Assembly: GCA_013239625.1 (NCBI GenBank)
Contig: MU053629.1
Location: forward strand, 220,676-284,675
Length of the DNA: 64,000 nt
DNA from: Lama guanicoe
Taxonomy: Eukaryota
Direction of reading: 5' to 3'
The notes beneath the pieces were generated by a model, which was not told where the DNA came from, did no database searches, and was given only the letters and a program-made list of their open reading frames with translations. The position numbers were made by a program, and so were the translations under genes. The stretch's first letter is position 1. Every line of letters starts with the position of its first letter. Below, piece after piece: positions 16,622 through 43,361 of this stretch.

Positions 16622-16703
16622 CTTTGCCTCTTCTTCAGTCCCTCTGGTTCACGAGTTGCAAGCTCAATTCCCAGTCCGGCTGGCACGCCAGCTTCAGCAC
16701 TGT
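16622..16703 (-). other. C2CD4B: Predicted non-coding exon 1 of C2CD4B (TSS ~16701-16703)
   Basis: Ends at donor AAG|GTATGG (GT at 16621-16620), starts ~30 nt downstream of the TATA element at CCACAGT, and contains no ATG. Confidence 0.7.
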
Positions 16704-16725
16704 GGCCAGGACAGGGGCGCGCCTG

Positions 16726-16760
16726 TCTTATAACGGAGCCTGAGTCCCGCCCAGCTGGCC
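16726..16760 (-). promoter_or_regulatory. C2CD4B core promoter: TATA element plus GC box
   Basis: Minus-strand TATAAGA at 16732-16726; GGGCGGG just upstream (~16746-16752). Confidence 0.7.
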
Positions 16761-17449
16761 GGGAGCCCAGCCCCCGGAGGCGCTGGACGGCCCGCCCTCG
16801 GGGCCACCCCTTCCCGCCAGCGCCGGGCTCCGGCGTGGGAGCGACGCTGTGGCGGAGCAGGCACTCGGCTCGGCTTGGGGCCTGCATCTGTTGTGCGTGC
16901 ACGGAACCGCTTGCACGGGCCTGTGAACGGTTACAGGTGGAAGGAGGCCTCCTCGTCGCCCTGCCGAGGGAGAATTGGCGGCTGAAAATGTTGGCGGCCT
17001 CTTGGAGAAGGTGAAGCAGAGGGAGGAAACGGAACTAAATCCTGCCCTCTTGCACATGACCTACACGCACTAGGGGCTTCTAGTTTACTGCCCCCGGGAA
17101 CCTGCAGAGTGTAGACCGATACAGTTCCCTTGGCACTCGTGTACTTACTTATTTACACGTCTGTCTCCCTCTGCTGGACCATGGCCTCCTTTATAGCATA
17201 TGGCCTGCCTCTATCAAAGCCGCGTATGTTGAAGTAGGTGGATTAATGTACGCAAAACTTTTTGAATGACCACAGGCTCCACCTGTCATCTTGGCTGTCG
17301 CAAAAGATGGGGTTCAGGCTCATGCCCTCAAAATGACGCTTGATATTTCCAAAGCTACCCCCTTCTCTCTGCTCCAGCATGGAAGTGTCCGGTTAGAAAG
17401 CACGTTACAGAAAATCTAGGTTTCCTCTTTCCACCCTCCCCCTCCCCCT

Positions 17450-17550
17450 TCATTTTCTAAGATGAGAAAACTGGAAGCCCAGTGGGACTTGAGGAAATTC
17501 CGTCAGCAGGAAGTAGAGCTAGTTAATGGCAGAACCTGGAACTAGCAATT
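17450..17550 (-). mobile_element. MIR fragment upstream of C2CD4B
   Basis: CATTTTCTAAGATGAGAAAACTGGAAGCCCAG..GCTAGTTAATGGCAGAACCTGGAACTAG. Confidence 0.6.
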
Positions 17551-20500: not shown

Positions 20501-20849
20501 TACATTTACATTATGAAAGTGATTATGATACCTTCATATTAAATCGAGTACTTGATATGATTTATTAAATTGATGAACACAGTAATTAATGTGTAACAGC
20601 TTATACTTCCTTATGGGCTGTCTAGAATAAACTGCTCTCGTCTTGATCCCCAGCCAAATGCTTGATTCTAGTTGGTTACTGATTTATTTCTCTTTTCTCT
20701 GTGAATAGCAACCAAAGTTTTAAGTACTCCATTCTCTTTTCCATTACTACTTTAATGTCAACCAAAAGCAAGATTCCTGTGAAGACTTATTTTTGTTTCT
20801 CTGTCCATGGTATCTAGACTCCATTCATGTTTTCTTCAACTTTTCTTTC

Positions 20850-22340
20850 TTGGGTTTTTTTTTTTAATCTGTAACACTCTATATATGCAAAAAACCCAAC
20901 GTACAATATAGTGAACACCTGTTTACTCACCAACCAGCTTAAGAAATAAACTATTTTCAAAACAGCTAAAGCTCCCTAAGTAACCCTTTCTGACCATGTT
21001 CTTGTCTCTTTCTTTCCCAGAGTCAAGCACTATCTTGAATTTTGGGTTTATTCTCGCTCTCTCTCTTTAAATATTAGTTTTACTACATATATATATATAT
21101 ATATATCCCTAATATTATTGTTTATTTTCTGGTTTTGATTTTTATAAAAATGATAATAAATACTCTTCTGCAATGTGTTTTTCTTTACATTCTGCTTGTG
21201 AGATTCATTTATGTGTTCAGGTATAGCTCTAGTTCATTCATTTTCACTGATGTATAGCATTGGATTGTACAAACATATTTCATTTTCTTGCTGATGGATG
21301 CTTGGATTGTTTCCAAATTTTTCCAAATTGAAATTGGCATACGTCTTCTCAATCACCCGTACAAAGGTTTTCTTGAGTACATCTCTGAGAATAGCTAGCA
21401 ATAGGGTATTTGCATCTTCACTTTTAATGCAAAATCACCTTCCTCACAGCAGTATGTAAGATTTCCTATTGCCCCAATCCTCAACGACATGCAGTATGAT
21501 TGGATTTTTTTAAAATATGGCTAATACGGTGAGTGTTGTGGGCTGGATTGTGTCCTCCCCAAATTCATATGTGAAGTTCTAACCTGTGGTAGCTCAGAAT
21601 GTGACTGTCTTTAGAGATAGGGCCTTTTAAAGAGGTAGTTAAGGTTCAATGAGGTCATTAGGGTGGGCCCTAATCTGATGTGACTGGTGTCCTTCTAAGA
21701 AGACATTATATTAGACTAGACATGCACAGAGGGAAAACAGTGTGAAGAAGATGGCCACCTACAAGCCAAGGAGACAGTCCCTTAGAAGAAGCCAACCCTG
21801 CCCACACCTGGATTTGGACCCTTAGCTCCAGAGCTGTGCAGAAATAAGTTTCTGTTGTTTAAGCCCCCTGGTCTGAAGTTCCTTGTTACAGCAGCCCTGG
21901 TAAACTAATACGGTGAGTTAAAAATGGTGAATTATCATAGCTTTAATTTGCATTTCTAGTATTTATAATTGAGGTTAAGCAGTTGTGCATATGTTAACTA
22001 GCCGTTCAGCTTTCTTCTATAAAATTCTTTCAAAAGTGTTTTTAAAAATATTTTTATTCTGTTATTTCCTTTTCATATACATATATGCACATCAAATACT
22101 ACTTCTTGGTCATTTCTAAGTACTGTAAACATCACCTTCCTGTGACTTGCTTTTCATATTTTTATGATGTATTTTGAGAAATAGAAGTTTTAAAACTTTG
22201 ATGTAATCATCAAATGTATCCATTTTTTCCCCTTTGTGATTTTGCTTCAGAGATAAATCCCTGTCCCCAAGGTCATCAAAATACTTTTCTCTATTTTCTT
22301 CTGATGTTTTAAAAGGTTTGCTTATTTATCTTTGGGCTGT
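20850..22340 (-). mobile_element. Old L1 (L1M) fragment, interrupted by an MLT1 LTR
   Basis: GTGAGATTCATTTATGTG..TAGTTCATTCATTTTCACTG..TTGGATTGTTTCCAAATTT..TTTAATTTGCATTTCT. Confidence 0.75.
21534..21912 (+). mobile_element. MLT1-type MaLR solo LTR with 5-bp TSD
   Basis: TGTTGTGGGCTGGATTGTGTCC..GCAGCCCTGGTAAACTAATAC; TSD GTGAG at 21529-21533 and 21913-21917. Confidence 0.9.
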
Positions 22341-23999
22341 CAATCCACCAAGACAAAGAATTTCCAGTCAGTGTTCTCCTGAAGAGGTGGTATGCTGCCC
22401 GTCTTTGGAGGCGTTCGGGTAGTCTGGACAGTGTAGAGGTAGGGGTGTTCTAAAGAGCATTCAAGTATCAGATGGATGAATAAAGCGTTCTGTCTGTTCG
22501 GTCATGGATCTGAGTACAACAGACAGCATTACTGGAAAATAACCCAACATTTCAAATATCACCTCAAAGTACATGGCTGTCCTCTCTGGGCTGCACTTGA
22601 CCAATTGATTGTTATCTGAAAGCCACAACCAACACCACCACGTCATTTAAAGGTATGGATAAGTCAGGAAATGCTGTGCATTGACAGACTTTGACACCAG
22701 TTGGTAACTGTGAAACTACAGCTTCCTGCTTTGCAACATGACTCTGTTCCAGTTTCATTGTGGATCCTGGGGGACTAAATGAGGCTCTTATTGATTTTTC
22801 CTATTAGTTACAAAAACGGAGACTGCCTGGATCCCTCTGCTCTGTCACTCTCTAGCTGGGGCAAGCTCCTTAATTTATTTAGACCTCAGTTTTTTCATCT
22901 ATACAATGAGGTTAATAGATGTCACTGCATCCGAGGGTGATGCTTATGAGTAATCCATGTAAGGCCATTATGAGACAGTGTCTGGCATTTACTCAGTAAA
23001 TCTTCCCTACGTTGTGGGAGTAGTAGTAAAGGCTGACAGCAGTATTTTGTAACTATACTCATTGTTAGTATATCAGGTTAAATTTTAAGACATAGATAAC
23101 AACTTGAAAAGGAACAAAAGAAAAAAAGACAAAACTTTTGTGGACACCTCTTCTGAGCCAAGCCCTTTACAAAAGATCCCTTACCTAATCTTCCTCAATC
23201 TTACAAGGTCACAATCACTTAACTTTTAAAGATAAATTCTGGCTCAGAGAGTTTAAATAACTCCTCCTAAAGTTGCCTGGTCTGTGACCACACAGCTCAG
23301 ACCTAAACACTGTGAACTGATACATACAAAAGCCTAGTCTGTCCGTGGCATTAACGCTGCCTTCAGAAGTCACTTGAGGTTAAAACAAGTTAATGGACTT
23401 ATCCCCAGAGCCTAACCTGCTCACTGCCTCTAGTTTTGAGAAGTCAGTGCAGAGCTTCCTTACAGGTGCTTCCTGACTTTGCACAGTATTTTGACAGGCC
23501 TAGCAGGAGTGCAACCTGGGGAAAGGATGCTTGGGGTTGCTCTGGGCAAGTCACTTAACCTTCCCAGCTCTTGGTTTTGTCCACATGAAACAAGACACTG
23601 AATGCTACCAGGTAATCTTTAAATTCCTTTCTAGGGCTTCATTCCCAGAGCCTAGAAACTGCAGAGCAGCCACATAGGGTCCTGCAAGGAAAGCCCTCCT
23701 GGGCCCCAGCCGTATGCAGACAGTGACTTTCCAGTTCTCCACATTCTGTTCACTTTTCCAGCCTCACTAATTTCCCTGAGCTCAGAATGGACCTCTCGGC
23801 TCCTAACTCTTATCTGTGGTGCTCAACTATTTGTTACAGCCACGACAATACTAGGCACCAGAGGATCTAAACAGATAGTTTCCCTAAGCAGTTAGAAGTT
23901 GGCTGCGTTTGGAATAGCACCTGGATCCAGTTCTGGACTACAAGACAGAAAACCAGAGCTATTTCTAGCATCACTAGTTAAAAGTTTTGTGATAGTGGC

Positions 24000-24462
24000 T
24001 ATATTTGTTTCCCAGGGCTACCACAAATTGGGTAGCTTACATCAAAAATATGTATTGCCTCATAACTCTGGAGGCTAGAAGTCCAAAATGAAGGTGTCAG
24101 CAGGGTCGTGCCCCCCTCGGAAACCTGTGGGGGAGAATGCTTCCTTGCCTCTCCCTGGTTTCTGGTTGTTGGCTGGAAATGCTTGGAGCTCCCTGGCTTG
24201 CAGCGGCAGCCGTTCAGGCTCTGCCTCCCTCACACACGGCGTTTCCCCTCCTGTGTCTGTGCCTCCTCTGTGTCTCTCCTTTTCTTATCAGGACGCAAAT
24301 CATCTTGCACAAAGGACCTACCCTACCCCAACTTGACTTTATCTTAGCTAATTCCATCTGTAAAGATCCTATTTTTCTAAATATGGCCACATTCTGAGGT
24401 GCCGGAGGTTAGATCTTCAACAAATCTTTTGCAGTTGGGAGGACACAATTCAACCCATAACA
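24000..24462 (-). mobile_element. MLT1-type MaLR solo LTR
   Basis: CTCTGGAGGCTAGAAGTCCAAAATGAAGGTGTCAGCAGGG..GGACACAATTCAACCCATAACA; TSD GTGGC/GTGAC. Confidence 0.88.
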
Positions 24463-25290
24463 GTGACTAAATCATGCCTTGTCTGATCCATCCATCGGAG
24501 ATGGCTTCTCAATCCAACTTAATAAAGGGGAAGAGGGAGGCAATTTTAGGACCTAAAGCAGAGGTGGTGGAGGAAGATAGGAATCCCCATAAAAACTGAA
24601 CCATCTATTCCCAGCACAAGAACCAGAGGTCATTTCGACACCCCTGCTTTCCGGGTAGAGAAATTTATAATTGTTCCCTCTCCGGGGGAAACATGAAAGG
24701 TCGCCGACTCAGTTAGGTCTTAGCTATTTTCCTGAGGCTGCGCCAGGTTAGCTGGCAGCCAACAGTTGCTATTTAAGGAGCAAAATCCCCTCATCAGGAA
24801 TCAGGAGATGGCTGAATAAAGCCTGGAATTTCAAGGAAGGAAATACGCTGTAGAAATATTTTCCTCCACATGGACCCATGCCAGTACAGAGTGGAGCATA
24901 GAGGGTCCCAGGCCAACGCAGGGTGACGGGGGTCACAAGGGGCGTGGTCTGCCTAGGAGAAGACTGCTAAGGCCCTGGCAGGGCCATCCCCCGTCCCTGC
25001 CAATTTCTCAGACCAGTGACCTGGGATCTTAGCACAGCCCAAATGGTGGGGGAAGAGCCATCGAGAAGGACAAATAAAGAACACTTCCAGCTGACTTCCC
25101 AAGGGAGAGGTCCAAGCCAGATCTGATTTAACTTGGAAGGGAAAATGTTACATTTCTAGCAACACCAGTGTTGTGGAGAAATCTGGAGCTGTTACAGTAA
25201 GAGCTAATAATCATTTAACTTCTATTGTCTGTGTAAGATCTATCGCACACATAAACTCTTTGTCAGATCAGTAAGCTTTATTTTAGTGTC

Positions 25291-25730
25291 TGTCATAGAC
25301 TGGGTTCCCTGGGAAGCTAAGTGAACTAGAGACATGCATATAAGGAGGTTGCCAGAAGACGCTCTCGGGAGACACACCTGTGGGAAAGGTGGGAGGGGGT
25401 GCAGGGATGGAGGGAAGAAAGGGGATTGGGCAGAGGGAGAAGAGATGCACTGCTGTCCCAACACAGGCCTCCGCAGATTCTGCAGAGAGCTCCGGAACTG
25501 GGAGAGCCCTGAAGAGTTGTCTCAGGACGGGGTAAGGGGGTAGGCAGTTATGGGTCCCCATCAATCATCCATTGTTTGGGAGCTCTCCTGGGCCAGGGGG
25601 CATGACCCTGATGCCCTTAGCTAAGGCAATTCCTGGAGAATTTGTCTGTGACCTGTCAGCAGCTAGGGGAATGAGTGCCTAGGGACTGAAGTGGGGTGGT
25701 GGTCTGGGCAGCACACCAGCCTCCACCATG
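25291..25730 (-). mobile_element. ERVL solo LTR (LTR33/LTR16-like)
   Basis: TGTCATAGACTGGGTTCCCTGGGAAGC..CACCTGTGGGAA..GGATTGGGCAGAGGGAGAAG..GCCCTGAAGAGTTGTC. Confidence 0.7.
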
Positions 25731-26461
25731 ACAATGCTCTCACTCTGGGGCGACGTGGGATGGCACTACCAGAGGGCCTCATGCATTCAGTGTACATAAT
25801 GGCCACTCAGCACGAGCTGGCACATCCAATCCCAGCCTTATCACAGCCCAGCCACCCCTCATTCCACCACAAAGGCACTCCTCCCAGCTGGAGACACGTG
25901 CGCATTACACCGCGGGGCTGCTCTCAGGGTACATCCGGGCGATAACCACCCCTTTTGGAGGGCAAGTTCTCAGGTCTGGTAACCTGTGGGCAACAGCATA
26001 TGGATGTTGCATGAGGCACATCAGTGTTATGTATTAAAATTGAAGTTGTAGAAGACTGTAAAAGAAAATAAAAGTGTGCACCATATGATCCCAGTTCTGG
26101 GGAAAGATACACACATGGGGAAAAAATCAATCAGAACACCCACTAAGCCAGAGGATGGAATTATCTCCGGATGGTGGGCTTCCAGATCATCCTAATCTTT
26201 CTCCTTTTGCCTAGATGTATTTTCTGATCAACCTAAAAAGCATGTTTCTTTTGTAATAGGGAAAAAATTGTTTCTCCTCTAAAGTAGGCACATCTCGTGA
26301 GGCCCTGTGACTAGATCAATCTAGTAGTGAAATTTGTTTAATCACCAGGGACAGAAATCAGGAGCAGGACTTTAAATGGAATTTGAATATTAACAGTGAC
26401 CACTTCAGAGCCCGGGAGATTTAGGAAAGGACAAGTCTGGGTAAGAGAAGGAGACTTAGGC

Positions 26462-26693
26462 CTATGCTGTTCAGAACAGCAGCCATCAGCCACGTGTGAC
26501 CACTGGAGCACTGGAAATGTGGCCGATTTGGACTGACATGTGCTTTAAATATGAAATAGAGATTTCAAAGGTTTAGTGTTAAAATATGTAAAATATCCCA
26601 GTAATAATTTTTAATAGTACATCTTGAGGGGATCATATTTTGAATATATTGGGTAAAATAAAATATAACATTAAAAACAATTTCTCCTGTTTC
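26462..26693. mobile_element. MER33/MER3-like hAT-Charlie element
   Basis: AGCCACGTGTG..GAGCACTGGAAATGTGGC..ATATATTGGGTAAAATAAAATATA..TTTCTCCTGTTTC. Confidence 0.75.
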
Positions 26694-28244
26694 ATACAGT
26701 ACTGGTCTAGACATCTGGCAGGACGCACAAGTTCTCTGAAATACTTCCCCAAAGTACAAGCAATTTGAAAGAGTGATTGCCTCACAGGATACCCACTAAC
26801 CTTAGTTTTACTTGGGGCTTTCACAGGACCAGCACTGAAAAGGGCAGTTGGTTGACAAATGAGCACAACAAAAACGAGCTCTGGGTGCTACAAGGCCATT
26901 AAATGCAACCACTTAATAGCGTGCATGTTGATCCATGTAACTGTACTCTATCAGCTCACGGAAAGTTAAGGAAACACCGTGTTGCTGTAGACAGCCGCTA
27001 GCATCTTCCCCTGGGAAAAGCCCTCATGCCTGTCACGGGGTGCTACCCGGGAGCTGCCAGTGGCACCCACACACCAGATGTTGACTTGAGCTCATCTGAG
27101 CATCTGATCATTTCAAATCTATTTCTTTCCCTAGAGGAATGTGAAAACGCACCCATTTGGCCAGGGTCCTGCCTCACCCCTGAACCTTTCCCCAGATTTG
27201 CTTAAAGAACAATAGCTGCTGCTTAAGGAAACAAAGGGCTGTGAAAATGTTTTTCCCTCTCCATAATAAACATTGCAAAGGTTCAGCTTAGAGAAATTTT
27301 TTTCTCTTAAAATGCCAGATATTCTCTGCAGTTAGCATTTCCCGTAAATTTAAGTTATTCAGATTCAAATGTGCCACGTCCCTGGGCCTTCTACTCTTTA
27401 AAGTTCCATGTGCCATATGGGACTCTTTTTAAGAGAGATGACTGTGGTTCTTTTGCAAAACAAAAGTTGAAAGTCTTTCTCTCTCTATAGAAGTGCAGTC
27501 TGACATTTGCCCACAATCACATGTTCCTTCTCACAGCTCAAATGACACCATTGGCAAGTTTCAAGCCAGGAGGGGACGAGCCAACCTGAACAACCCCCTC
27601 CTTCACCACTATCTGACTGGATGCCAGAGACCCGACAAGGCTCTGAGGATGAACTGTCCACCTTGAAGAAAAGATGGATTCTGGACCCACTGGGGTAGCT
27701 GGGCTTTCCAGTCCTGAAAGTGGCCAATATTACCACTCTACTCCCATTTGGCATCCCTGAAGCAAAGGCATCTTGGAAAGAAGTAACCATCATGGCCCCA
27801 CGGGAGGCTGCACACCATGCACATAACTGCTGGGAGCAGCAGAGAAGTAAGTTCCCTGTAGCCAGCACCGCCCGGCTCAGTGCAGCCACAGGAGGTGCTG
27901 CCTGAACTTAAAATTTTAGGGCTTGAACAGGTGCATCTACGAAGCAAACCAATGGACTGAAGAACAAAGCTCCCTACAGCCCCCTGACTTCTCGCAGTTA
28001 AGACTTTGGCTCTTGGTGTTAGAGCAGGCAGAGAGCTAGATATGAGCAGAGAAAGGGGGACACAGACCATATGGCAGGAATTGGGCAGAAAGGAGGGGCA
28101 CAGGCCAAATGCAGGAAACCACACATCATGTGAGCAGCAGGGATCCTTGGGCAGAGAAAGAAAAGACTGGAATCTTTGATAAGGGGCCACACCTTTTGGC
28201 TTGGAGACCAACAAAGAAAGGTCAGAAAAGGCAGGAATTTCCAG

Positions 28245-28657
28245 TGTCCGAATGTAACCTTTTACTCATTATGCCCTCATTTCAATAAAATTAGCCTTGC
28301 AGATCAGAAGTACCCATCACACACCAATGCCATGACACTCCCGATCCAGACTAAATAAGGACAAAATTCCCTCCTCCCTTCGGGAAGGTGGAGTTGGGAT
28401 GATAATCAGGGAACACGACCCCAAACCCTTCCCTCCCCAGTGAATATTACGCCCATTCATTTTTACATCCTATGTAACTAACTTGCCAAAGAAACTCAGG
28501 GCAGCTGCTCACCTGAGCCTGCCCGCTCTCCCCTGAGAGTGTACTATCCATTCTTTAATAAATCCTCACTTTACCTTTTTAACCTCTAAGTCTTGTCTCT
28601 AAATTCTTTCTGGGACGGGACAAGTGCCTGGAACACCAGTTGCACCTATCGGCGACA
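28245..28657 (+). mobile_element. ERV1-like solo LTR (413 bp)
   Basis: TGTC..GACA termini; U3/R-like GAGAGTGTACT..AATAAA (~28557-28562); U5-like AAATTCTTTCT; 4-bp flanks CCAG/CTGG. Confidence 0.75.
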
Positions 28658-31600
28658 CTGGTACAGTCTAAAACGTGAAGGACCCTCCAGCGATTAATAC
28701 AGAACACTCCTTGTTGCCCTTTACAAGTGAGGGCTTCAAATAATATGACATTTTTGTACCCCAAGTAATATGAAGAAATCCTTATCTATTTCATATAGGA
28801 CTAAATACTATTCAATGTGTGTCATCTTTGAGAGACGTTTCACACAAATGCTTTGTCAGATCATACGTCACCAGAAGTATACTTTATTATAATGCCCTGC
28901 GATTACTTTGAAGTATATATGTTGTGAGACAGCACACACCTCAGGAAGGTTTCAGTAAGACATTTACACACTTGGTGCTGGGTGTGCCACTTGTTTCTTA
29001 AGTGAAGATGCACAATTTCAAAGCAAACTCACACGACGGAACCCAAACATCCTGTGCTTGACCACATCTGCCCTCCCCATCAGGAGAAGCCAAACATCAC
29101 ATCATGGGGGCCTCGTGCACAGTGTCTCTAGTTGGTGTCCATTCATCGTCTCCACAAAAACCTCCTGGATGGGACCTGTGGACAACAGGAGGTTCGTTAA
29201 TAAATTAAAGCACACCTGTGTGAGAGACCATTAACGTCCATGTTTTATAATCCAGAAGAGTATAAGCTCAGAAAAATTAAAAAAGTCCACAAACCAGAAT
29301 TGTATTAAGTGATGCCATTTCTGAAGGGAAAAAAAAGTACCCATGGCAAACACTGTGGAATGTTACCGGCAAGTTGACTCTGCATGGCTGGATCACCGAT
29401 TATCATAGTCTTCCTCTATTTACTTATCTGTATTTTCTAGATTTACCAAAGTGAAGGTGTATTGCCTCTACAGTAGAGCCCCTCCCTCTCAAGTAGATGC
29501 TTCTGCTGGGAGATGGAGCTGAAGCTGGTTTACGTAGACAATGAAAGTGAGTTACCAATAGCTGAAGACATCAGGGTGGAACTTAAGAGTTAGTGTATTA
29601 AGAGTTGCCACTTTAGAGCCTGGGTTCTTGGGAAAGGACAAATTTGGGTAAAAGAAAAAGCCTTTAGTCACACGAGAGGGTACATGAGTTCCCTGAAAGC
29701 TCAGGAAAAAGGGAAAAGGCCTGATCATAGTGCAGTTTTCCCTGAAGCCCTTGAATGTCAAATGCTGGGCCCCTCACCGGGCAAAAAGAGGCCCACCCTA
29801 CCTCGCCAGCGTGTATGCACATTAAGCCATACAACTGGGGGCCTGATAAGAGAACAATGCACTTACGTTGAAAGGGGAAAACCAAGAACCACGAGCCTGT
29901 GGGAGCACTGAATCAGGCCAGGCCCAGGGCCGTAGGTGGAGGCCAGCCACGGGAAGGACTCAGCAGTACGGGCCTGTGTGGAACTGAGCATGGGACAGAC
30001 GCATCCCAACCCGTCCCCGAAGAAGAAGATCGGTGTCTCTGGAGATGTTCACATTAGGATGAATGAATGAATGTGGTTTACAATATATGATTTTGGTTAT
30101 TTTGATTTTGGTCATTTTGTTTCTTCACCTTTAAAATTAGTCATGTCATAATTAATATGCAGTCAATGGTTACCCCAGAGAAGTTCCTTTGGAAAAACAC
30201 AATCTGGTTAAAATTGATCCTAGGGAAGGCTTTTGGACTACCTTCAAATTTCAAATTCTATTTTCAGGTAAGAGGAAAAGAGAAGGATGGAAACTTACCT
30301 AGTTCTTAGTTTCTTTAGTTTCATACTTCTTGTCTCTTTCTTCCTCTCTAAAATATTCTAGCCCTTCTCACTCGTAAGGTTTTGAATCCTTGAAGACATT
30401 AAATCAAGATTTAAATGAAGATTAACAAGGCACTGTGTTGTACTGCAAATTAAAATAGAACAGTGCTTAAAAACTACTATAAATCTTGTAGTTCACTAAG
30501 TAGGGTGTCAATGGAACGTTTCAGTCTTTGTGACAACCTAGAAGATGTGAGGAGAATGGCAAAGGGGTGGCAAAGGGAGGAGGCAGAGACAGGAGAACTT
30601 GGTGCACCAGGGAAACAGCACAGTACAAACACAGAGCCAGACTCTGCACTGTTAGTGGGAATGCAAAATGGAACTACCAATTCAAAGAACAGTTGGGTAG
30701 TTTCACTGGTTGTTAAATGCATACTTTCCAAGTGATGAGCCACTCAATTCTACACACACAAATAGCCTCAACCCAGTTTAAAAAAAAAAAAACACAAATA
30801 GTGAACCCTAATGTAAAGTATGGACTTTAGTTAAGAATAACGTATCAATAGAAGTTTAAAATTATAAAGATTTTTATGCTTAATATTCCTCATGTGGGGG
30901 TGAGGATTCCAAATCCACCCTCCCTAAAGCACAGACATGAGGCTCTCTTAACCCCTCCAAACAGCCTTGCGATCCCTATGACTTACCTGCGTTTTAAGGC
31001 ACCTGAAAAGCAGCATTTTCCAGAAGTAAGCAAACCTCCTGACGTAGAAAGTGGGAAGACTGCAGGCATTTGTTCCCCTGAGAACCGGAAGTTCTGTGCA
31101 TGCGAGGAAGACGATGTGTTTGCTCAGGGAGCCTGGGTTCTGGCAAGTCCGTCCCACGGTGAAAGGTGGAGGTTGAGCCTCTGGTCCATCAAAGTCTTGG
31201 CTCTTAAGTAGCCCACCAGCTGTCTTCCTGCCCCAATTACCGGGCCCTTCACCTCTGCAGGCCTGCTTTTCCCACCTTTATCCAGGATGAGCTCCTTGGA
31301 TGCTCTGCCCGCCTCCTTGCTCTGACACTCCCTCTTTTTCCTCCTCCACAAAACTTGATTCATTTCTGCCACAGCCGGTCTCCATCCAAGTCCAGTTTTG
31401 ATCTCTCTTTCCTAGAGAATTCAACCTAGGAACTTTGGAAATCTTCAAGGTCAAATCCATTACTTTACAAAGGAGGTAACAGATTCCATGAGGTAAGGTG
31501 ACTACCGTAGGACAATGTAGTTAATTCTACATCCACCATTGCCACCATATTAGGCAACTGAATAATCAAATGACTGCCATGATCATGTGTCCAAGATTTT

Positions 31601-31751
31601 GAATCCTGATTTCAAATGTCCTGTACGGTCATCAGGACACATTAAGAATTTCACTATCTAACATTGCAACTGCTACTGCAGATGTGTTAAGAGGGACCTT
31701 CTGCAAGCAATACATTTACTTCTGTTACTGAATCCAACTTTCCAGTTATGA

Positions 31752-31900
31752 AGCACTGATTCTTAACTTTTTAGTGCAATGAACTCTCTTTAGGAAACTG
31801 ATGAAACTTATGGACCCTCTCCACACAAAAATATTTCCACAGAAACATAAAATTTTGCTCCAGTGAATTAACCATGCAGTACATGACTGTGAAAACCCTT
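31752..31900. mobile_element. MamRep38-like hAT non-autonomous element
   Basis: GATTCTTAACTTTTT..CTGATGAAACTTATGGACCCTCTCC..AAAATTTTGC; a related copy lies in opposite orientation at ~57725-57875. Confidence 0.55.
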
Positions 31901-31984
31901 GCTCTGATAGCAGAAATCAGCCTATCTGCCATGTGGTCAGGGACAACTTTAAAATAGCTCTTAAATCCTAACAAAAATTTGCCA

Positions 31985-32160
31985 ACATTTATATGACAGA
32001 TTACAGAGCACGTTTAATCCTCACAACAACCCTGTGAGGTAGGTATTAATACCCCAGTTTTACCCACAAGGAAACCACAACCCAAAGAAGTTTGGAGACT
32101 TGCCAAAGTTCACACAGCTTATAGTTGCAGTGCCAGGACTAGAAGATGGGCTTTTTGTTC
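31985..32160 (-). mobile_element. MIR SINE
   Basis: TTTAATCCTCACAACAACCCTGTGAGGTAGGTATTA..ACTTGCCAAAGTTCACACAGCT. Confidence 0.75.
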
Positions 32161-35100
32161 CTTGATCAAAACATCTTTACATATAATGTGCTCAGTTTGG
32201 GAATTAAGATCCTACCGAGGGAAGACTCATTGGCAAGCCCTTTCAACAAAGAGGGGACTATGAGAGGCTACAGAACAGAGCCCAGTGAGCTGTGTGGACA
32301 CACTCCCCGAGCATCATTCCCGGGCAGGGATACGAGAAAGGATGTCCTTAGAATTGCAGGCTTTGGGGTCCAGACAACAAACACCATTCGAAGGAACACA
32401 AAACAGAGCCAAAGCAGATGCCAGAAGTTGCAAGACACACAGGTTTGGTTTTGGTTCTGTTTTCACCATAGTCATGAATTATTTGGCTCTTTTCCCAAAG
32501 AGCTGAAAGTTAGCTGGGAGGGGACCCAAAAACATTTTCAAAAAGGCAGAACATACACCAAAACGGGAATCTGAGAGCCAGAAAACAAACATCCAAACTT
32601 CACCTAAAGATTAAGATGCTTGGAAACCTGATAAATGGCCATAGAGAAACACCTCCAATAGGGAAAGGTGGGGTGAGAAACCCTAATCAACCCGTAAGCC
32701 AGAGATTTCAGAATCTCCACAAAGTCCCTGGTCATATTCTTCATGACCCAGAACCTTCCTTTGGCCATCTGCTCAAAGACATGAAGAGAGGGAAGTTCAT
32801 GCCATTGTTTCTGGGCTGGATCAGTGGAAATTGAATGCTGTCCAAGGACTGTGGCAGGTTTTTGAAAGTTTTCAACGGTCCACAGCAAATGAGAAAACTA
32901 TGGTGGTGCTGTTGTTTTAGTAAACGAACCTATCTATCCAAATGAGAGCACTGTCCACCACTGTGCTACCTTAGTACAAAAAGCACTCTTCAAAATGCTT
33001 GGTAAAATGACAGTAATAGAGCCAATTTCCTTCACCCAGCTTTGTATGTATGTATCAGAGTGTCTACCCAGCCAGTGCCTTAGTTCCAGGGTCTTGGGGA
33101 CTCTGGCCAGGCAACCTTAAGGCCCTTGCCAATTATCTTCAGCAGAAATGAACACCTTAAAAACAGACCACGTAGGAAAGGGTTTCCGGATCCCATCATA
33201 ACCTACCAATCTACCCCCCTCAAACTCTGGAAACCCACAGCTACTTTTCAACGTCTGCTTTGTAAAACCAAACCTACTCATACAGCAAAACTTGACTCCC
33301 TCAGAAGGCCCCCCAGCTTCAGCAAAGACCCTTAACCCACCCTTCACATAGTGGTAGCCTCTTCTACAAGAGGGGTCTTCGGGCTCTCTGGACTTCGGGG
33401 ACCCATAAATCGGATACCAAAATGTTTTTCTTCAGCTTCTTTGTGGTCATTTGGGGATAAGGATGCTTCTTCATTCTTCCTTTGCATTTTCCAAATTTCT
33501 CACAACTCCCTTCTCCTCCATTTTTCACACAGCATGACAGGCAAGCGAGAGCCTGAGGTGAGTCGCAACTGAACCACTCACAACAGCACAGAGGTACTTC
33601 AAGGAGAGGAGAGGAGAGAATATGGCCCGTCACACCGTGCCTGCGGGTATGGCGCCAGGACACAGGAAGCGTCCTATCCCTGACTCACTTCAGAATAGTG
33701 ACTGTAACACCATAACCCGGGTTCCCACCCGGGGGAAGGAGGGAAGCCACGTATCCTTAGACCATACACGACAGCTTGTCATCCACCCTCAGCCCAAGAG
33801 CAATTACAAGAAGACTTCAGGACCCATTCTGGGGGCCTCCCTTTTCTTAAACACAGAAAAGGGAGTACTCGGAACGCCACTTCTCACCCCACGCCCTTCA
33901 GGCCACCATGACATTATCTCCCCTCTACATACGAGCTCTTCTAGAGCACAGAAGGACTCATGTTCATCTTTTATCACCAGTACCTAGACAGTGCCTGGCA
34001 TGTAGTCAGCACTCCGCATTTACAGGAAGGAAAGGAGGGAGGAAAGAAGGAAAGTTGAAGCACAGGAAGGGATGTTTCCTGTTTCCTGTTCTGTGGGTTT
34101 CTTGTGTGTTTCTTCCTTTGCCGTCGCCCCTCCCCTTAGCCTTTGCCCTTTCCTCAATATTCATTTATCTTTCCTTTTGTACAACCTCTACCTAAATCAG
34201 TGTTTCTTCTACTTTTTTCCCCCTTATGTTTCTCCTCTCTCTGTTGCTGCAGCCTAACTTCCCTAACACTTTTATTCTCTATAACGTTCTTGGTTTCTCC
34301 TTTGCTTGCTCTAGTTTCGTCATTCTTCTTGGCTTCCTTTATGGTGAGGATCACCAGACCCAAGGGAAGTGAAAAGGCAAGTAATGCTGAAAAGAGGGAT
34401 GCCACAAAATGATGAAAGGAGAAATAGCTAAGAGGAGGAGGCCCACAAACCCAAGCCCACGGGTCCAGCAAAAAGAAGCCATTAATTCCTTTTTTCCCTT
34501 ATCACAAAGGACAAGAAATTTCTATTTATATGTTTTCTAACCTATTCTTTAGCTTCTTCAAAGTTACCGCAAAAGCTCTTCCAGTTACCATCAACCTAGA
34601 AACTGACCCTTTCAAGGGTATGTATGTATCCTTGCTCAGCATGGGAACACCTGGCACTTTGTCTGTCAGCACACTGCTCCCAGGAGGCCACCGCAGGCCC
34701 TGTTTATATGAGTGACAGCAAAGGCCCCAGCTAGCACCCTGAGGCTGGGGAAGAGTCCTTGCTCAGCACCACTGTCACGTGCCTCATGTCCCTCCCCCAC
34801 TTCCTGACCATAATGCAGTGTCCCCCGGGGCTGGTATCTCTGCAAACTCCCTCTTCCCAGCTCCAAATCTGGATTCCAAAGGTTTTGGGCCTCCTCAGAT
34901 GATCTCACAATTGGAGGAGGGAACAAAACTTAGGAGACTTACAAATCCAAAATCCCAGTTTCCCACTAGAATCTAGCCCTCCCTACCACCTAGCCTAGCA
35001 GCACAGAAGGTATGGTTTTCGATTTGGGGACAAACAGCACAGGCTAACTGGAGGCACTCTGGTGATGCTAAAATGGACGGGAGAGCTAAGAGGTCAAAGA

Positions 35101-36628
35101 AGCAAATAACCAGAAAAGACTTTTCCAGTTTAGAATGTAGATGTATAACTGACATTGTACATCTAGTGTCCTTCCTACTGGGGAATGCCATTCATAGGGA
35201 CCACCTGCCTAATAATGAATATCATGTCTCATTCTCAACCAAAGACTCCAGCTACTCTGACACCACTTGCCAGATCCTGAATACTAAGGGGTATTCAGTT
35301 TCAAGGTTGGATCCCAAATTCTTAACAGCCCTTAGAATTATGTTTGGACTGCTGTTTAGGTGTCCCTGCAATATTGTTTCTATTCCCCAGGCCCACTTAA
35401 AGAGACAGGGTACTAATTGAAGAGAAATGAAGAGCAATCTTCCTCTAATTTCACACGTGTCCCTTAGGTCAGGAATGACTATCCAGTGATGTCCCACCCT
35501 CTTTTCCTTTGGGTCTGTGAGGACTGTGGTAAGTCTTTTCTAACCACTACCACCATGGACATGAACATCCATACGCAGGCTTAGCCTATTTTAAAATAGG
35601 TTTTAAGAGTGCCCCGCCCACAGGACTTTCAAGGCAGCCTTTCTTACCACCCCAGTTAGTATCTACTTCACTTTCCCAGTTCTGGCCTCAGGAAAAACAC
35701 CCCCTCAGTTCCAAAATGCCCAGAATCTCTGGAGAACCCACACCTAGGTCCAGTCTAATATCATTTCAGGGTTCCTCCTTGGGAACACCACCAATGTTTG
35801 CCTCATTAACAGACAAAACTTCAGAGCCCCGTTGGAGCTCACACATGTGCTCAAATCTACAAGCCAGAAAGCCTGTGCTAGTGAGAGAGAAAAGCAGACT
35901 CTCCCACGAGGGACAGAAGTCTCAGAGGGAGATTTTCTTTTGTTTAACCCCTTGAACCCAACAGCACATTGTTAAGTGACTTCTCCAATGACATCAAAGG
36001 GACTTTAAAGTCTTTTTGGGAAACAGCTTTCTTCCTGTCTCCTAAGAATGGGGAGAAGGAATACATCGTCCCCTAAGAGATGAGAGAATAAGAGGGCTCT
36101 GATAGGGAAAAGATAGGAACAGAAGGTAAGTAGGAATGGCCTAGATGGCAGAGACCCCTAGGCTTATCTTGAGACAGGGATCTGGGTGCAGAGGCTGAGT
36201 CCGTGCGACCCTGACTGGTTGCAGGCTTCAATAAATTGATGACCACAGTCCCAAGGTGATCACTTAGAGCAGGAAGCATGCCTGCTCCCTTCTTAGAGTC
36301 AGAAAAGCTGGCTAAAAACCCTCAGCCTTGAGCAAAAGAGAAGTCATCTGCCAGGCTGGCAGCTGAAACTCAGAACTCAGTATTTATGGGTGCAACTGCA
36401 AATTTCACCCAATTTAGCATCCACTGTATAACTTTCTGCCCAGGACAAGGTTTGAAATGTTCCAGTGGTTCCCCCAAGGCCACTGCACAGGCCAGCTGCA
36501 TTATTTAAGAAGGCCTGTGCAGCTCCGACCTAATCATCCTAGATACAGAATCTTCTCCTAAGGCCACTGTCACCACAAGAATATATGGCTCTGCTACAGT
36601 TCAAGGCCTGAGCAACAGCCTAGGTGGT

Positions 36629-37113
36629 CGTGTCCCCGCATCTACAGAGCCTCCTGGCCTGCCGGCCTGCCTGCCGCAGTGTGCGAGCCTGTGCCCACCT
36701 CGACCCCCGCAGCGAGCTTAACGGAAGGCAGGCCGGGAGGGGGCAGGGGAGCGGCCAACGCCTTCCAACGGCAGCTGGGGGCGAGGGGGGGCTCGAACGG
36801 GGGTCTCCCGGCGATTGGGCAGGGGCGCTGCTGGTGTACAGGGATCCCAGGGCTTCCCTGCAGGGGCCGGACCAACGGCTGGGCTGATGTTCCGCTGGCC
36901 GGTGGCCGCTCTCCTGGGCGGCCCCGCCCCCTTGCACTTGTGTGACCTTGGAGCTCTGTGCACGGATCCCTCCTCCGGGCTCGCGCTGGGCTGAGCCCTG
37001 CAAACGCTGGGGGCCACTTGGAGGTTTGGCTGGTGGCAGCCCCGAAGCTCTGCCCCTCCTGCGGTGGCTTCCAGTTGCAGTTACCTTCCTATTTCCCTGC
37101 ACAGGCTCCGCGT
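36629..37113. promoter_or_regulatory. Orphan CpG island / candidate MYB (A-MYB)-driven bidirectional promoter
   Basis: About 35 CpGs in ~485 bp (hand count). TAACGG 36719-36724, CAACGG 36766-36771 and 36873-36878, CAGTTG 37072-37077, CAGTTA 37078-37083; minus-strand CCAAT 36814-36818; GCCCCGCCCC 36921-36930. No recognisable repeat or CDS. Confidence 0.75.
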
Positions 37114-38499
37114 AGGGTCCCTGGTGCTACATGAACAGTTTCAACCTGGACGTGGGGAGGCAGTGGTATAGCCTTCTGCCCTTACCAGCCCTTCCGGCTT
37201 CATTTTCTTCATCTTAATTGCTTGGGCCATCGTAGACTTTTCTGGACCATGGGGGTTGGGGCAGGTGCCCATTTACCACCTCTCAGTCCTCCCCAGAAAT
37301 GAAGTCATTTCACCCTTTCCCTCCTCCACTCCATGCTGAGGCTCTCATATCAAGCTTCTTCCTGCCTCCGTGCCCACCCATTCTTCTTGCCCTCATCTGG
37401 GGTAAAGAGGTTCTGGCTGAGCAAAGGTGGCCATCCTGCCACCTCCCCCGTGCAGCTCCTTGTTCGGAAGCATCTGGGGCATCTGAGCATCTGTGCTCCT
37501 GTCACTCCCATGTTTCTGGTCCCTCCTGGGTCTGTCTGGCATTCTCTATGTTGCCCTGTCATCACCCTCTCCCAGGTGTCAGTCACCACACATCCTTCAA
37601 CTTGCTTCTCCTTCAGGTCCAAAGGGCATGTGCTGGTGGAAAGCAGCACTTGGCACTGTCTGTATTGGCCTCTGTGCTTGGCTTATTAAACTCAGACATT
37701 TAATGAATATCATTTTGAAAAACATTTTTACTTGAGCATTTACTTATTGATTACAGGTTTAACACACATCTTCTATGTTATTTAAATTACAAAGTTAGGA
37801 TAGTTGAGTCATTTGAACACTTCAATGGCTTAAACAGCAGACACAACTGGAACTTCTTACCAAAACTATAATAGCTTTATAACTCCCCACCTCCCCAAAG
37901 GCAACAATTGAACTTTGTTTCTTACACCTACTCTTTCCTTGGGCAGAGGGAGAAAGAGATGCCAAAACAGGGACAGTGGTTATTTGTTGGCGATGAGATG
38001 AATGCTTTCCATTTTCCTATTTATCTGTGTTTTCTACAAAGCAAATATATTTTTAAAGCCTTTTTTAAAAGAGACATGAAGAGACTGTGGGAACAGGGAA
38101 TCAAAACCTTTGACAATCTGATCAAAGGACATGTGTCTGCTCTTTCAGGGAATTTTCCCTAACACTTGCAAGCCTTTCCCACACAGTGTGGTCCTAACAA
38201 AGAAGAGGCAAGGGCAGCTTAGGGTAGATGGAGGGGAACTGGTGTGGAAAAGGTTAGTGGGGATTCTGACCATGGTTTGGGGCAGAGGAACCTGAGCGAT
38301 TCATTGTACCTCCCCTAAGAGAGGGACCAGCCGAGTGACACTGCGCACTCGTGAGCTGGGAGCAGATTGCTCTGTCCCCAGGAGGTATCCCATATTTTGT
38401 TTATTCAATCCTCAGGCTGCTTTCCCACTCTTTGGAAAGTGTAGGGCAGGATTCCAAATTACAGCCACCAGAGTATTCAAAATAATTTGGGAGAGCCTA

Positions 38500-38680
38500 G
38501 GGGTTAAGACTCCGGCTGTGAAATCAGACAGGACCAGCTTTCATCTAAACTCTCCACACCGATCAGGTGTGTGACCTTGGGCAAGCCATCCAAACAAAGA
38601 GCCCCTGATTTTTCCATCTCTACACAAGTGATAATACTCGCTGGAAGGATTATCATACATCACGGCACCTGTCACGTCGT
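38500..38680 (+). mobile_element. MIR SINE
   Basis: GGTTAAGA..GTGTGTGACCTTGGGCAAG..TTTTCCATCT. Confidence 0.6.
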
Positions 38681-41600
38681 CAGCGCTTAGCTGATGAGAG
38701 TTAGTAGCCCTCTTCCTGCTTCCCCCCCCGTTGTCAGACCCCGGAGCCCACGGCCTCCTTCAGCATGCACCTTATTCCCATCTGTGTCCCCAACACTCTG
38801 CATGGACTCAATATGAGATAGTCTTAGGTAATCGTAGATAGCTAAGATTTTTTTCCTTTTCATAGAACCCTTTGCAGACCCTGAGGAAGGGTGCCCCCTG
38901 ACCCTCACAGTCCCTTAGGGTGTGCCAGGGTCTAAGATCTTGGGTCTCTAGAGGAATCTGGCCAGAGCTGGAGGGTCCATCGTGCCCAGGGGGCATGGAG
39001 AGTCCCACTTAGGCTCTGACTCGACCTCCTAAATGAGCAGTGCCCAGCTGAGGGCCCAGGGTGAATGGGCCTCCCACTCCCAATCCGAGGCTGACTTGAC
39101 CACCCCAGACTTTGATGCTCCCTGAGAGGAAACACTTGCACAAGACCCAGGGTCCTGTCCTCCCCGGTCAAAATCCGACCTCCTCTGTGGCAGGAAGGCC
39201 CCGGGTGTGGAGCTCAGTCAGTCATGCCTCCCCAGCAGGGCCCCTTCATCTACCTCTGTTTCCACTGCATCCTCACCATTGCCCTTTCCCTGGCCCAGAC
39301 CCTCAAGGGTCCTCTTCCCCTTCATGCCTTTACCTTCTCCCTGTGAGTGCTGAGGCCCCCAGAATTCAACCTGCCCAGTGCCCTGTCAGGTTTTGATGTG
39401 GGGAGCTTCTGTAGAGATTTTTACCAAGCAGAGGAGCCCCACAGTCACGCGTCACCCCCTCAGCTTCCCTCAGCACATTTCCCTACTTCTTCTGTTCCCT
39501 TCTCAGTGTCCTGGAGCAGCCTCTTTAATCTCTTCCTCCTAAATCAGCCCCCATCTGGCCAATTCCAAGGGGTCTGATGACAGGTGCATCAAGTCTCGAA
39601 AGAGGCATCTCCAGCTTTAAAAGCGGGGTTTTGGGTGTCAGTAACCGGCAACTGTCAGCTCTAGTCTGTCCACAGAGACAGGGACTCTGATGGGGCCTTT
39701 GAAGTCCCACTCTCAGGTCCAAGCCCACGCTGCTTGCCTGCCACCCTCCCCCACCCATCCAGGTGTAGCTGGGAGAGACCATCTCTCCGTGACAACATGT
39801 GCATAATTTGTAGGGGGAATGGAAGAACATTTAGATCTTTTTATTTACTACAAAAATAAAAGACATGCATTTGATCATGAGTGTCAGGGGCTGGGAGGTA
39901 ATGACAAGCCAAATGGAAAAATAACAGAACTTCTAAATTAGCCAGGGGAAAGGGGAGAAAAAATAATGGAAAAGAAGGAAAGCAAAAAAAAAAAAAAGTC
40001 AAATGCAAATCTATAAACAAGAAAGCAGAAATAGGAGTATTACTATGAGGCAAGGTTGACCCAATTATGTCACAAACTTATATACATCTAGGAATACAGT
40101 AGCTAAGTGTAACAAGCAAAAACAATTAGCCACGCGAGAACTTGATTTCAAAATACAGCCATGATGGGAGATTTAAAAATACCCCAAGAATCTGCTTGTT
40201 TTGTTTATTGTTCCAAAATTAGATAAGACGATCTTAGAACTGATGTGGGAGAGCACATGTCTAAAATCGCTAAGAAAATCATGTAAAGGAAGACTGCTGA
40301 GGAATCTTACCTCGTGAGATGTGGATAAGGTCCTCAAAAGAGCTGCTGAATGCAAGGGCTTGGGGCACAGGAGGGTTGACGGGTCGCCTCAGCCGGGGAC
40401 CGCTGTGGAGAGGGCAGCTCCCAGCTCTCAGTGGCTGCACTGGCGCTGCAGGGTGGCCTCCACCAGGAAGGAGACAAGGGTAGAGCTGACCCTGTTGGTG
40501 GCTCCGGCTGGTGGCGAAACTAGCGATAGAAAATTTAAAATAATGCCATGGCTATGATTTCTCACTCTAGGGTTGGAGAACATGCAAAGAAATAAAGAAA
40601 TGTGAATTGACTAGACAATGTTTGAATATTCATTCAACAAACGGATCCTACAGGCAGGGTACTGGGGGATCACATAGCTACTCTTTGGCTACAGCTGCAG
40701 GAGAAGACGTTTTCCTTTAAGGGGATATATACACTTCACGGCTCAGATTGAACGGTGTCTGGAACTGACTGGGTCCTCTTGGAACCCAGCTCGTGGCCCA
40801 AACTCACAATTTCTCAGATGCAACCAGAGAAGCCAGGGTACTATCCGCTGTCTAGGACTCCTATCCCCATCCCTAGCCTATACTCCTATACTCAAAGCAT
40901 ATTTTGTGAAAGAAACCTGTCACGTAGAAGATCTATCTACATATATATATATCTAGATAATATATATATGCATATATACACACACATGCCCATACACATG
41001 TATATACATATATGTATGTGAATGGATAAACTTTTTTCAGGGCAGAGAGAGGGAGGGAAAGACTGAGACACGGTGGCTCCCTTAGAGCAAAGCACACTGT
41101 TGTTACAGAACAGTGGGTAAGGCTAACTGATATGTGATTGGTTTCACTTAGGTTTCCTATCGTAAGTGGAGCCAGCTAGGTAGTTATTGCAAGGACTCCA
41201 GAAAACCTCTATCTAACTTCACTTTCTTCCATGATTAATAAAAATAATAACAATAATAGAGGTTGACTTGGGATGGTCCCGAAGAAACACCCCCACGGGA
41301 TCAAATCCTCTTGACACTTGGAGGAGGACGCAGATAGTATTTGGGGCTTGCAGAATCCCCAAATCAGCAAAAATGAGCCAACATTTCAGAAGATGATGTG
41401 GGGCAAGAATAGCTGGTGGGGAAGGAAGCCAGAAACAACCTTTTTTTTCTGTATTCTGTTAAGAGGAAGTAAGTCTGGAAATAAATCTTTGTCTTCAAAG
41501 AGCTAAGTCTCACGGGGAGGCATATAAAAGTACAGGCAAATGGAAAACACACGCTTGTTGCTTTAACAGTAGAAATACAGGGTGGAGGCCCACATAAGAG

Positions 41601-43361
41601 ACAGCTGTGCAGGTAGGGAATGCCTCCAGGAGGAAGCCATGTCTGAGCCTTGAAGAATGAATGGGAGTAGGTGAACAGTGGCTTCAGGGTGGTGAAGGCT
41701 TTCCAGTAGAGGGAATGGTACCTGCAAAGGGTAGAGCATATGTAGGGGAAAAAGTAAAGTTCATTATGGCTGCAGTGGCGCACGTTGGAGGGCAGGAGTG
41801 GCGAAGGCCTTTAAAACACGTTAAAAGACAAAAGCAGTGTCTTTTTTTATTTTAATCTTAGTTCCTGCTCCCCTCTTGGCTTCCCCGAAAGAATAAATCA
41901 GCAATAAAAAAACAGACACAGACACGTCTTCTGCAAGATACATTCAGAAAAAAATAGAGGAAAAATATTTCAGACATAAACACGTATCAGAAGAAAGCAA
42001 GCATGGCAGAGAAAAACAGATAAAGCAACAAAAGGATGGAAATGGACAGTGGATGGGGTGGGAGGAGCCACAGGCCAGCAGAAGAGAGCTATGGAAGACA
42101 GTGTGGTCAAGGAGCGGGAGGGAGAGGGGAGGAGAGCAGGGGCCCCCAAGAACTCGGGGCAGGTTCAGGCACTAGCGCTCAGACCCTGCTGACCACACAC
42201 GGGCTCCCTGACCTTGTGGGGAGGCTCTCTTGCCCAACCAGACCTCTCTCTTCCCTCAGTTCTCAGCTCCAAGGGAACGGGAGAAAGATGTTTGCAAATC
42301 TTCAAGTTTGGAGAGGGGAAAGCAGAGTAAAGACCATTGCCTCCATGTGCAGCCAAAGAAGCGCCAGAGGTCCCAAGAATTGTAGTTGGTGGAGTGATAA
42401 CATTTATTTCCTTTCCTAGGGCTGCTCCACGGGTGGTGTTTGTAAACTTTTTGAAGGAGCTTGGAACAAAGCTGCTCCCAGAGACTCAGTGGGTAGCTGT
42501 GCCCCAGCCTGAACTGGAAGGTTAGAGGTGAGCTGCTGAGCCTGGAAGGGAACCAAGGCGACACGGACTAGGGGCTCTGTGGCAGCTGAAGGCAGGGACA
42601 GATGGTGGAAAGCCTTGGAGCAGCTCTGCCTGTGAGCTCTTTGAGGCTGATGCTTTGTGTCATAAATTTGACTCTGCTCAGCCCCTAGGGTGTGGTAGAT
42701 GTGTTCCAAGTGCTTGCTGAATGGATGAAAGGAGGTGGCTGAGAAAAGCATATGCTAATGAGACCGCCTAAAACCCCCCCTGACTAATAATAATCAGCTA
42801 CTCCCTGAGTCCTTGAAGACACTGCTATGAGCTGCTGCCTGCAGCCTCTAACCAGCCCACAGAGTAAAGCCATGGCCTCTGCCAGGGAACGCTGTGACCC
42901 GAGGGGAAGCTTTGGAAACTTTGGCAACTAGTCTAAGAGCTCCTCCGGGGAATTCCTTGAAATCATAACATAAAATCCTGAAACCTCTAAAAGGAAGTCT
43001 GGAAGCCCCCGTCTGAAATCCTTGGAATCCCTACCAGGAAACCCTGGAGCCCTGCTGGGAGGCCCTGGCAGTGCTGCTCAGGGTGACGGACAGCCTCTCA
43101 AGCTTGCGTTACTGCGTTGTCTCTGCCTTTGCAGCAACAACTCCTGCTGGAGTAGGGGACGGGATTACCGTTTTGTTTTAATAGCAGTGGCTGTGTCCCA
43201 GTCACTTGGGCCCAGAAGGCCCATCCCAAAAGGACAGGGCATGGACTTCCCAGGTCTCCTATCAAGATGGTGGGACTTTGGGAAGGCTGGTCCTCATTAG
43301 CCGTCAGGTGCAGGGCTTGAAACCATTTCTGGGTGGTTTTAGTTGAAGGACGGAAATCATG

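Follow-up and report, generated by a model that had tools for sequence, protein, structure and literature searches.

A compact MYB-site-rich element between C2CD4B and TLN2 as a candidate camelid orthologue of the pi9/15-q22 bidirectional piRNA promoter

A weakly CpG-rich, single-copy element carrying a cluster of MYB-type sites lies at positions 36629-37113 of the Lama guanicoe DNA analysed here, a 64-kb stretch hereafter called the window. Judging from its composition, a genome search and sequence shuffles, we regard the element as a candidate bidirectional promoter core, and we lean, with a little better than even confidence, towards its being the camelid orthologue of the piRNA promoter known as pi9 in mouse and 15-q22 in human. 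Synteny, the published mouse and human loci, site density, CpG retention, position within the interval and locus-specific RNA words together make this reading probable. An earlier note, made from the letters alone, had proposed the same orthology. Its grounds of synteny and relative position stood, and the element proved to be the only CpG-rich MYB-dense one in 264 kb; a compositional strand switch at the element was not found.

The element was examined by sequence reading and regex scans. Five exact YAACKG sites are present, with the positions and strands that the earlier note had given. Three lie on the plus strand, namely TAACGG at 36719-36724 and two CAACGG sites at 36766 and 36873. The other two form a tandem pair on the minus strand at 37072-37083, where CAGTTG (37072) and CAGTTA (37078), 6 bp apart, read as CAACTG and TAACTG. 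Both CAACGG sites are embedded in the identical context CCAACGGC, the copies of which start at 36765 and 36872 with a spacing of 107 bp. The first of them overlaps an E-box, CAGCTG at 36772 (composite feature 36765-36777, plus strand), and the second occupies 36872-36879 on the plus strand. The string CCAACKGC occurs five times in the 64-kb window, and two of the five fall inside the element. Near-matches to the MYB site are found at 36756 (CAACGC) and 36795 (GAACGG). The remaining promoter-like motifs are an inverted CCAAT box of NF-Y type (ATTGG, 36814-36818, minus strand), which is the sole one in 36560-37160, and a GC box of Sp1/KLF type at 36916-36930, composed of GGGCGG (36916) beside CCCCGCCCC (36922). 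Neither TATAAA nor TATAWA occurs in 36560-37160 by regex. The shared context, both near-matches, the CCAAT and GC boxes and the missing TATA box were thus all as previously described. The element had also been called non-repetitive and free of coding genes, and both descriptions were borne out: a 701-bp query over it matched one place in the 2.05-Gb genome, and the eight ORFs on it (four of at least 110 aa and four of 70-109 aa) yielded no Pfam family. Rfam gave no match at the element.

CpG islands of the Gardiner-Garden type are defined by a length of at least 200 bp, GC of at least 0.5 and CpG O/E of at least 0.6, and a stricter definition demands at least 500 bp, GC of at least 0.55 and O/E of at least 0.65. 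The 485 bp of 36629-37113 contain 35 CpG, with GC 0.70 and O/E 0.59. A 420-bp core at 36571-36990 (GC 0.69, O/E 0.60) passes the lenient thresholds marginally, and no 500-bp span reaches an O/E of 0.65. The proposal of a CpG island therefore survives for the core under the lenient thresholds, as a weak island, and fails under the stricter ones. For comparison, the island at C2CD4B (15121-17160) extends over 2,040 bp with GC 0.70 and O/E 0.94, so that the element is both smaller and CpG-poorer. The local CpG O/E of 0.59-0.63 compares with a window background of 0.26, which points to long-term germline hypomethylation of the element. Calculated with the formula of Yu 2021 over the element and 500 bp on either side, O/E is 0.44; this value falls in the intermediate-CG class of that paper, whose promoter window may differ from our ±500 bp. 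Of 100 mouse pachytene promoters classed in that study, 49 are low-CG and 33 intermediate-CG, together 82 of 100 (Yu 2021, PMC7782496). A low or intermediate CG content is typical of pachytene piRNA promoters, not defining.

The significance of the MYB-site cluster was assessed in several ways. A uniform-composition expectation of about 0.7 sites had been put forward, and its arithmetic is right. In 5000 dinucleotide-preserving shuffles of the region itself, the mean was 0.57 sites over 36629-37113 against five observed (P = 0.0006), and 0.45 over 36719-37083, where none of the 5000 shuffles reached five. The YAACKG density at the element is accordingly about 10-fold above that of the shuffles. 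It is about 27 times that of the C2CD4B island, which holds one YAACKG site in 2,040 bp versus five in 365 bp here. When the 87 sites of the window were placed uniformly, at least one cluster of five in 365 bp arose in 0.11 of 20,000 trials; for the 323 sites in 264 kb, the corresponding value was 0.26. Since the cluster count alone is unremarkable after this look-elsewhere correction, the motif count needs context to mean much. Of the 14 occurrences of the CpG-bearing form YAACGG, three fall inside 160 bp of the element (P = 0.006). Across the 264 kb, a density of five sites per 365 bp is reached at two loci only, the element and 4922-5196, and one more locus has four sites. The A-MYB consensus has been called "information-poor" (PMC10060231), and the TCFL5 motif WANSWCGW (bioRxiv 10.1101/2021.04.04.438419) is too degenerate for a scan.

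The cluster at 4922-5196 comprises five YAACKG sites in 275 bp of AT-rich, CpG-poor sequence about 10 kb downstream of C2CD4B, and it is probably due to chance. It lies near a tRNA-like element, probably a SINE, at 4380-4451, which is the sole Rfam match in the window.

The genomic setting of the element was established by homology. A 435-aa ORF at 15279-16586 on the minus strand is the coding sequence of C2CD4B; its best match is C2CD4B of Camelus ferus, with 96% identity over 88% of the query, and Pfam assigned no family to this ORF itself. A second minus-strand ORF, at 16525-17034, includes the exon that lies upstream in the Camelus ferus model. Both ORFs (15279-17034) sit inside the strong CpG island at 15121-17160. 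Because the N-terminus of that model maps to this second ORF, the 5' exon of C2CD4B is located in this large island and not at 36.7 kb, and the possibility that the element is a distal first exon of C2CD4B was rejected on the same ground. The element lies about 20 kb upstream of that 5' exon. On the window's contig (C1293), a C2CD4 paralog (C2CD4A-like) was found by homology at 164.9-165.9 kb on the plus strand, followed by the window's C2CD4B at 236.0-237.3 kb on the minus strand, the element at 257.3-257.8 kb, and finally the plus-strand gene TLN2, whose first FERM_f0 exon is at 582.8 kb and whose Talin_middle match spans 627.7-631.0 kb. The order and orientation of the paralog, C2CD4B and TLN2 are those which we take to be the human arrangement. 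The synteny that the earlier note had given for mouse and human is thereby found on one camelid contig, with C2CD4B in the window and the element between C2CD4B and TLN2.

To the right of the window, a plus-strand-gene signature begins at about 141 kb in extended window coordinates, with more T than A, more G than C and a deficit of poly(A) hexamers on the sense strand (59 v 87; 62 v 109). Since this signature begins just after a 2.7-kb CpG island at 137.9-140.6 kb, the start of TLN2 is probably in that island. With the start so placed, the C2CD4B-TLN2 interval measures about 121 kb, and the element is located about 0.16 of the way along it. A site between the two genes and on the C2CD4B side is where an orthologue of pi9/15-q22 would be sought, and this is where the element lies.

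Several minor features of the C2CD4 genes were noticed. On a short separate contig (C43390:26-430), the last 135 codons of C2CD4B recur with 100% identity; this contig is probably an assembly duplicate or a haplotig. Over their C-terminal halves, the two C2CD4 paralogs (15279-16586 in the window and C1293:165225-165947) are 81% identical, and a Vicugna pacos protein named "C2CD4A-like" is near-identical to the window's C2CD4B over the last ~130 residues. This likeness suggests gene conversion, or a mixing up of the A and B names by automatic annotation.

The mouse and human loci are well described, and the literature agrees with what the earlier note had said of them. The pi9 locus is indeed 9-qC-31469(-)/9-qC-10667(+); it is among the four largest sources of mouse pachytene piRNAs, and promoter-deletion alleles exist (PMC11566022). 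Human, macaque, marmoset, rat, mouse and cow share a conserved piRNA cluster between TLN2 and C2CD4B (PMC12676428), where the earlier note had correctly placed the mouse and human loci (PMC12676428, PMC7782496). In mouse the cluster is bidirectional and loses its piRNAs when 646 bp of the promoter are deleted; an age of more than 90 My is given for the locus, whose human counterpart targets GOLGA2 (PMC12676428). The mouse genes occupy chr9:67691251-67733786(-) (42.5 kb) and 67733944-67760929(+) (27.0 kb), and the human genes chr15:62488207-62516381(-) (28.2 kb) and 62516074-62574360(+) (58.3 kb), all of them single-exon (PMC7782496). They are divergent and unspliced, with TSSs 158 bp apart in mouse and an overlap of about 300 bp in human (PMC7782496). 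By liftover, the mouse arm on the C2cd4b side corresponds to human chr15:62455997-62516253, with its end inside the human promoter, and the human minus gene, taken back to mouse, starts 124 bp from the mouse TSS (PMC7782496). Because the arms lift over to each other's promoter, promoter-proximal DNA is alignable between the mouse and human orders. At mouse pi9, A-MYB ChIP gave 18.7 and 18.5 RPM versus input values of 0.30 and 0.26 (Yu et al. 2023, PMC9808571 Table S1B), and the A-MYB and TCFL5 peak summits are 0 bp from the TSS (PMC9808571).

Compared with these loci, the camelid element shows both likenesses and differences. Mouse pi9 (mm10 chr9:67,733,786-67,733,944) also lies between C2cd4b and Tln2, nearer to C2cd4b. 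Its arm facing C2cd4b spans 27 kb from the promoter to the far end, whereas the gap in the camelid is 20 kb. The A-MYB and TCFL5 summits of mouse pi9 are on its TSS and its arms are unspliced and non-coding, whereas the camelid element is known from sequence and synteny. The human locus, 15-q22-8218.1/15-q22-56093.1 (= piC-as(GOLGA2)), likewise has C2CD4B on the minus strand and TLN2 on the plus strand; its short arm points towards C2CD4B and its long arm towards TLN2. The human promoter is presumably about 59 kb from C2CD4B, versus 20 kb in the camelid. The element also resembles a generic TATA-less CCAAT/GC-box CpG-island promoter, having one inverted CCAAT box, one GC box and GC of 0.70. 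As to the bodies of the clusters, a mouse pi9 arm carries a Spin1 pseudogene fragment (PMC12676428), whereas Pfam revealed no pseudogene fragment in the camelid window. An antisense GOLGA2 fragment is present in the human cluster and missing from that of cow (PMC12676428).

By analogy with mouse and human, the following sequence of events may be proposed. In pachytene, A-MYB (MYBL1) would bind the homotypic MYB sites, and the NF-Y CCAAT box and the Sp1-type GC box would help to hold the TATA-less, germline-unmethylated core open. RNA polymerase II would then start divergently within a few hundred bp and produce long unspliced transcripts, running on the minus strand towards C2CD4B for at most about 20 kb and on the plus strand towards TLN2 past the end of the window. 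The transcripts would be exported and cut into 26-31-nt, 1U-biased piRNAs. A-MYB binding, start sites, strandedness, transcript length and piRNA output are all features that we infer for the camelid locus from its mouse and human counterparts. A minus-strand precursor arm towards C2CD4B is predicted at 17200-36628 by analogy with mouse 9-qC-10667.1 and human 15-q22-8218.1, and a plus-strand arm towards TLN2 at 37114-64000, probably continuing past the window end, by analogy with the 42.5-kb mouse 9-qC-31469.1 and the 58.3-kb human 15-q22-56093.1. Much of the window would accordingly be piRNA precursor, as the earlier note had also proposed. The predicted arms contain no protein-coding gene recognisable by Pfam, as would be expected of a piRNA locus. 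To the right of C2CD4B, none of the 35 ORFs of at least 110 aa and none of the 149 ORFs of 70-109 aa passed the Pfam cut-off, and Rfam had no match in that part of the window.

RNA from the locus was sought by sampling 1074 words of 32001-42000 in sequencing runs. All eight RNA-labelled runs classed as holding this segment carry 0.32-0.34 of the sampled words; four come from study P1, whose record label reads reproductive-system transcriptome, and four from study P2 (organism A). Six DNA-like runs (organism B) carry 0.82-0.84 of the words. Six further runs with a word share of 0.07-0.12 were left out of the evidence. We considered whether the RNA words derive from repeats and rejected this: none of 9970 31-mers is common to 32001-42000 and the other 254 kb, no BLAST HSPs were obtained between them (E<=1e-5), and genome-wide the segment has only three weak matches. 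Since 32001-42000 has no repeats in common with the surrounding 254 kb, the RNA words are locus-specific, and because they are locus-specific, part of this intergenic segment must be present in the RNA libraries. If the RNA is from the same species, RNA contigs account for only about 40% of the 10 kb, a smaller part than would be expected of two abundant unspliced arms. Alternatively, RNA of a sister lineage that has diverged by about 3.5% may cover the segment completely, given that 0.965^31 is about 0.33. The RNA word share is near-constant across libraries of 178-939 million letters, which would fit coverage by a sister lineage. In an attempt at locating expression, none of 10 window ORFs was found in the protein collection. 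For 10 kb of mammalian intergenic DNA, 32001-42000 is unusually repeat-poor.

Strand composition was analysed across the predicted arms. No strand switch is seen at the element in large-scale A/T, G/C or poly(A)-hexamer asymmetry. Between 45 and 90 kb, A exceeds T on the plus strand, and poly(A) hexamers (AATAAA/ATTAAA) on the plus versus the minus strand number 23 v 1 (47-57 kb), 27 v 10, 25 v 11 and 30 v 16 per 10 kb. This asymmetry is the reverse of the plus-strand TLN2 signature (59 v 87; 62 v 109), and the composition of 45-90 kb does not support the predicted plus arm. It resembles a signature of minus-strand transcription or of repeat orientation, and may be due to old A-rich repeats or to replication polarity. 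A switch of the GC-skew or R-loop type was considered and rejected, the only local flip being at ~36,720 (from -0.18 to +0.27/+0.38) and gone within 150 bp.

Rival elements were sought in 264 kb, at 220.7-484.7 kb of the contig, comprising the window and 200 kb to its right and reaching from C2CD4B to inside TLN2 (247 kb beyond C2CD4B). This stretch has 17 CGI-like segments of 300 bp or more; no other short one among them holds five sites, and the element is the sole segment in the 264 kb that is both CpG-rich and MYB-dense. Two strong islands further right have five MYB-type sites in 1.86 kb and three in 2.7 kb.

Several observations count against the assignment to pi9/15-q22: the RNA share of 0.32-0.34, the cluster chance of about 0.11, the second cluster and the information-poor consensus, as well as the absence of a composition switch, a core CpG-richer than the low-CG class (49/100), and the presumed human distance of ~59 kb versus 20 kb. 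Some of these would fit a promoter or enhancer of another kind, such as a lncRNA start or a distal element of C2CD4B or C2CD4A. Its MYB-type sites would then either be incidental or be used by a different member of the MYB family or by an unrelated factor. The MYB motif is a short one, with a family-wise chance of such a cluster of about 0.11 per 64 kb, and CCAAT and GC boxes occur in promoters generally; the share of flanking 10-kb words in RNA runs, only a third, would suit a transcript of a few kb, and a lncRNA or enhancer is compatible with the lack of a strand-composition switch. Yet the element occupies the very interval in which a conserved piRNA promoter would be expected, no competing CpG-rich MYB-dense element exists in the 264 kb, and the Camelus ferus C2CD4B model starts in the 15.1-17.2 kb CpG island. 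We consider this alternative possible but rather unlikely. The same site and CpG figures bear on another explanation, that the element is a chance GC-rich patch with no regulatory function. It is a weak island that fails the 500-bp O/E 0.65 threshold, and the look-elsewhere probability is 0.11-0.26. Against an accidental patch stand a CpG O/E of 0.59-0.63 versus a background of 0.26, three CpG-bearing MYB sites in 160 bp (P = 0.006), the co-occurrence of generic promoter boxes and RNA words at the locus, and we hold it to be very improbable.

A further alternative accepts a camelid piRNA promoter and places it elsewhere in the 121-kb interval, either at a weak CpG-rich segment at 54.0-54.4 kb or at the island at 105.8-107.7 kb, the element then being internal to one arm. 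The asymmetry at 45-90 kb resembles minus-strand transcription and would be consistent with a promoter beyond 90 kb, although its cause may simply be replication or the way in which old A-rich repeats are oriented. The island at 105.8-107.7 kb does have five MYB-type sites in its 1.86 kb plus 100-bp flanks, but this is a density of about 2.4 per kb, compared with 13.7 per kb at the element. The human promoter is also farther from C2CD4B; a promoter at ~106 kb, however, would be 0.74 of the way to TLN2, versus ~0.13 in mouse and 0.26 in human. A promoter elsewhere in the interval is distinctly unlikely.

A fuller version of the preferred reading, in which the element is the pi9/15-q22 orthologue, would combine several propositions. 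The 0.33 word share would represent full-length RNA of a sister camelid at about 3.5% divergence, with both arms transcribed over the 10 kb. A pair of CCAACGGC copies 107 bp apart, flanking an inverted CCAAT box in a small CpG-retaining patch, would suffice to find pachytene piRNA promoters in the raw sequence of unannotated mammals. The camelid locus would have been compacted, its minus arm running in tandem into the C2CD4B promoter island. That all of these hold jointly seems to us unlikely.

The camelid instance appears to be undescribed in the literature searched, in which no camelid piRNA-cluster map was found; the locus itself is known and already phylogenetically mapped. In the available text of PMC12676428, neither camel nor alpaca occurs, and in PMC13252550 camel figures solely as a reference genome. 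If the assignment is true, the camelid orthologue adds a second cetartiodactyl lineage to the phylogeny of the locus. It would also offer a compact, sequence-defined promoter, with five MYB-type sites, one CCAAT box and one GC box in less than 0.5 kb, for testing which sites are needed, and would indicate that such promoters are recognisable in raw sequence once synteny is known. An orthologue here would be an expected addition and would leave the current view of piRNA biology unchanged.

The strong CpG island at 105831-107690 in extended coordinates (contig ~326.5-328.4 kb) is an orphan, 1.86 kb long with GC 0.63 and O/E 0.81. Its place is within the C2CD4B-TLN2 interval, some 30 kb short of the island at which the TLN2 signature begins, and it may be an upstream TLN2 promoter or the start of an unannotated gene or lncRNA.
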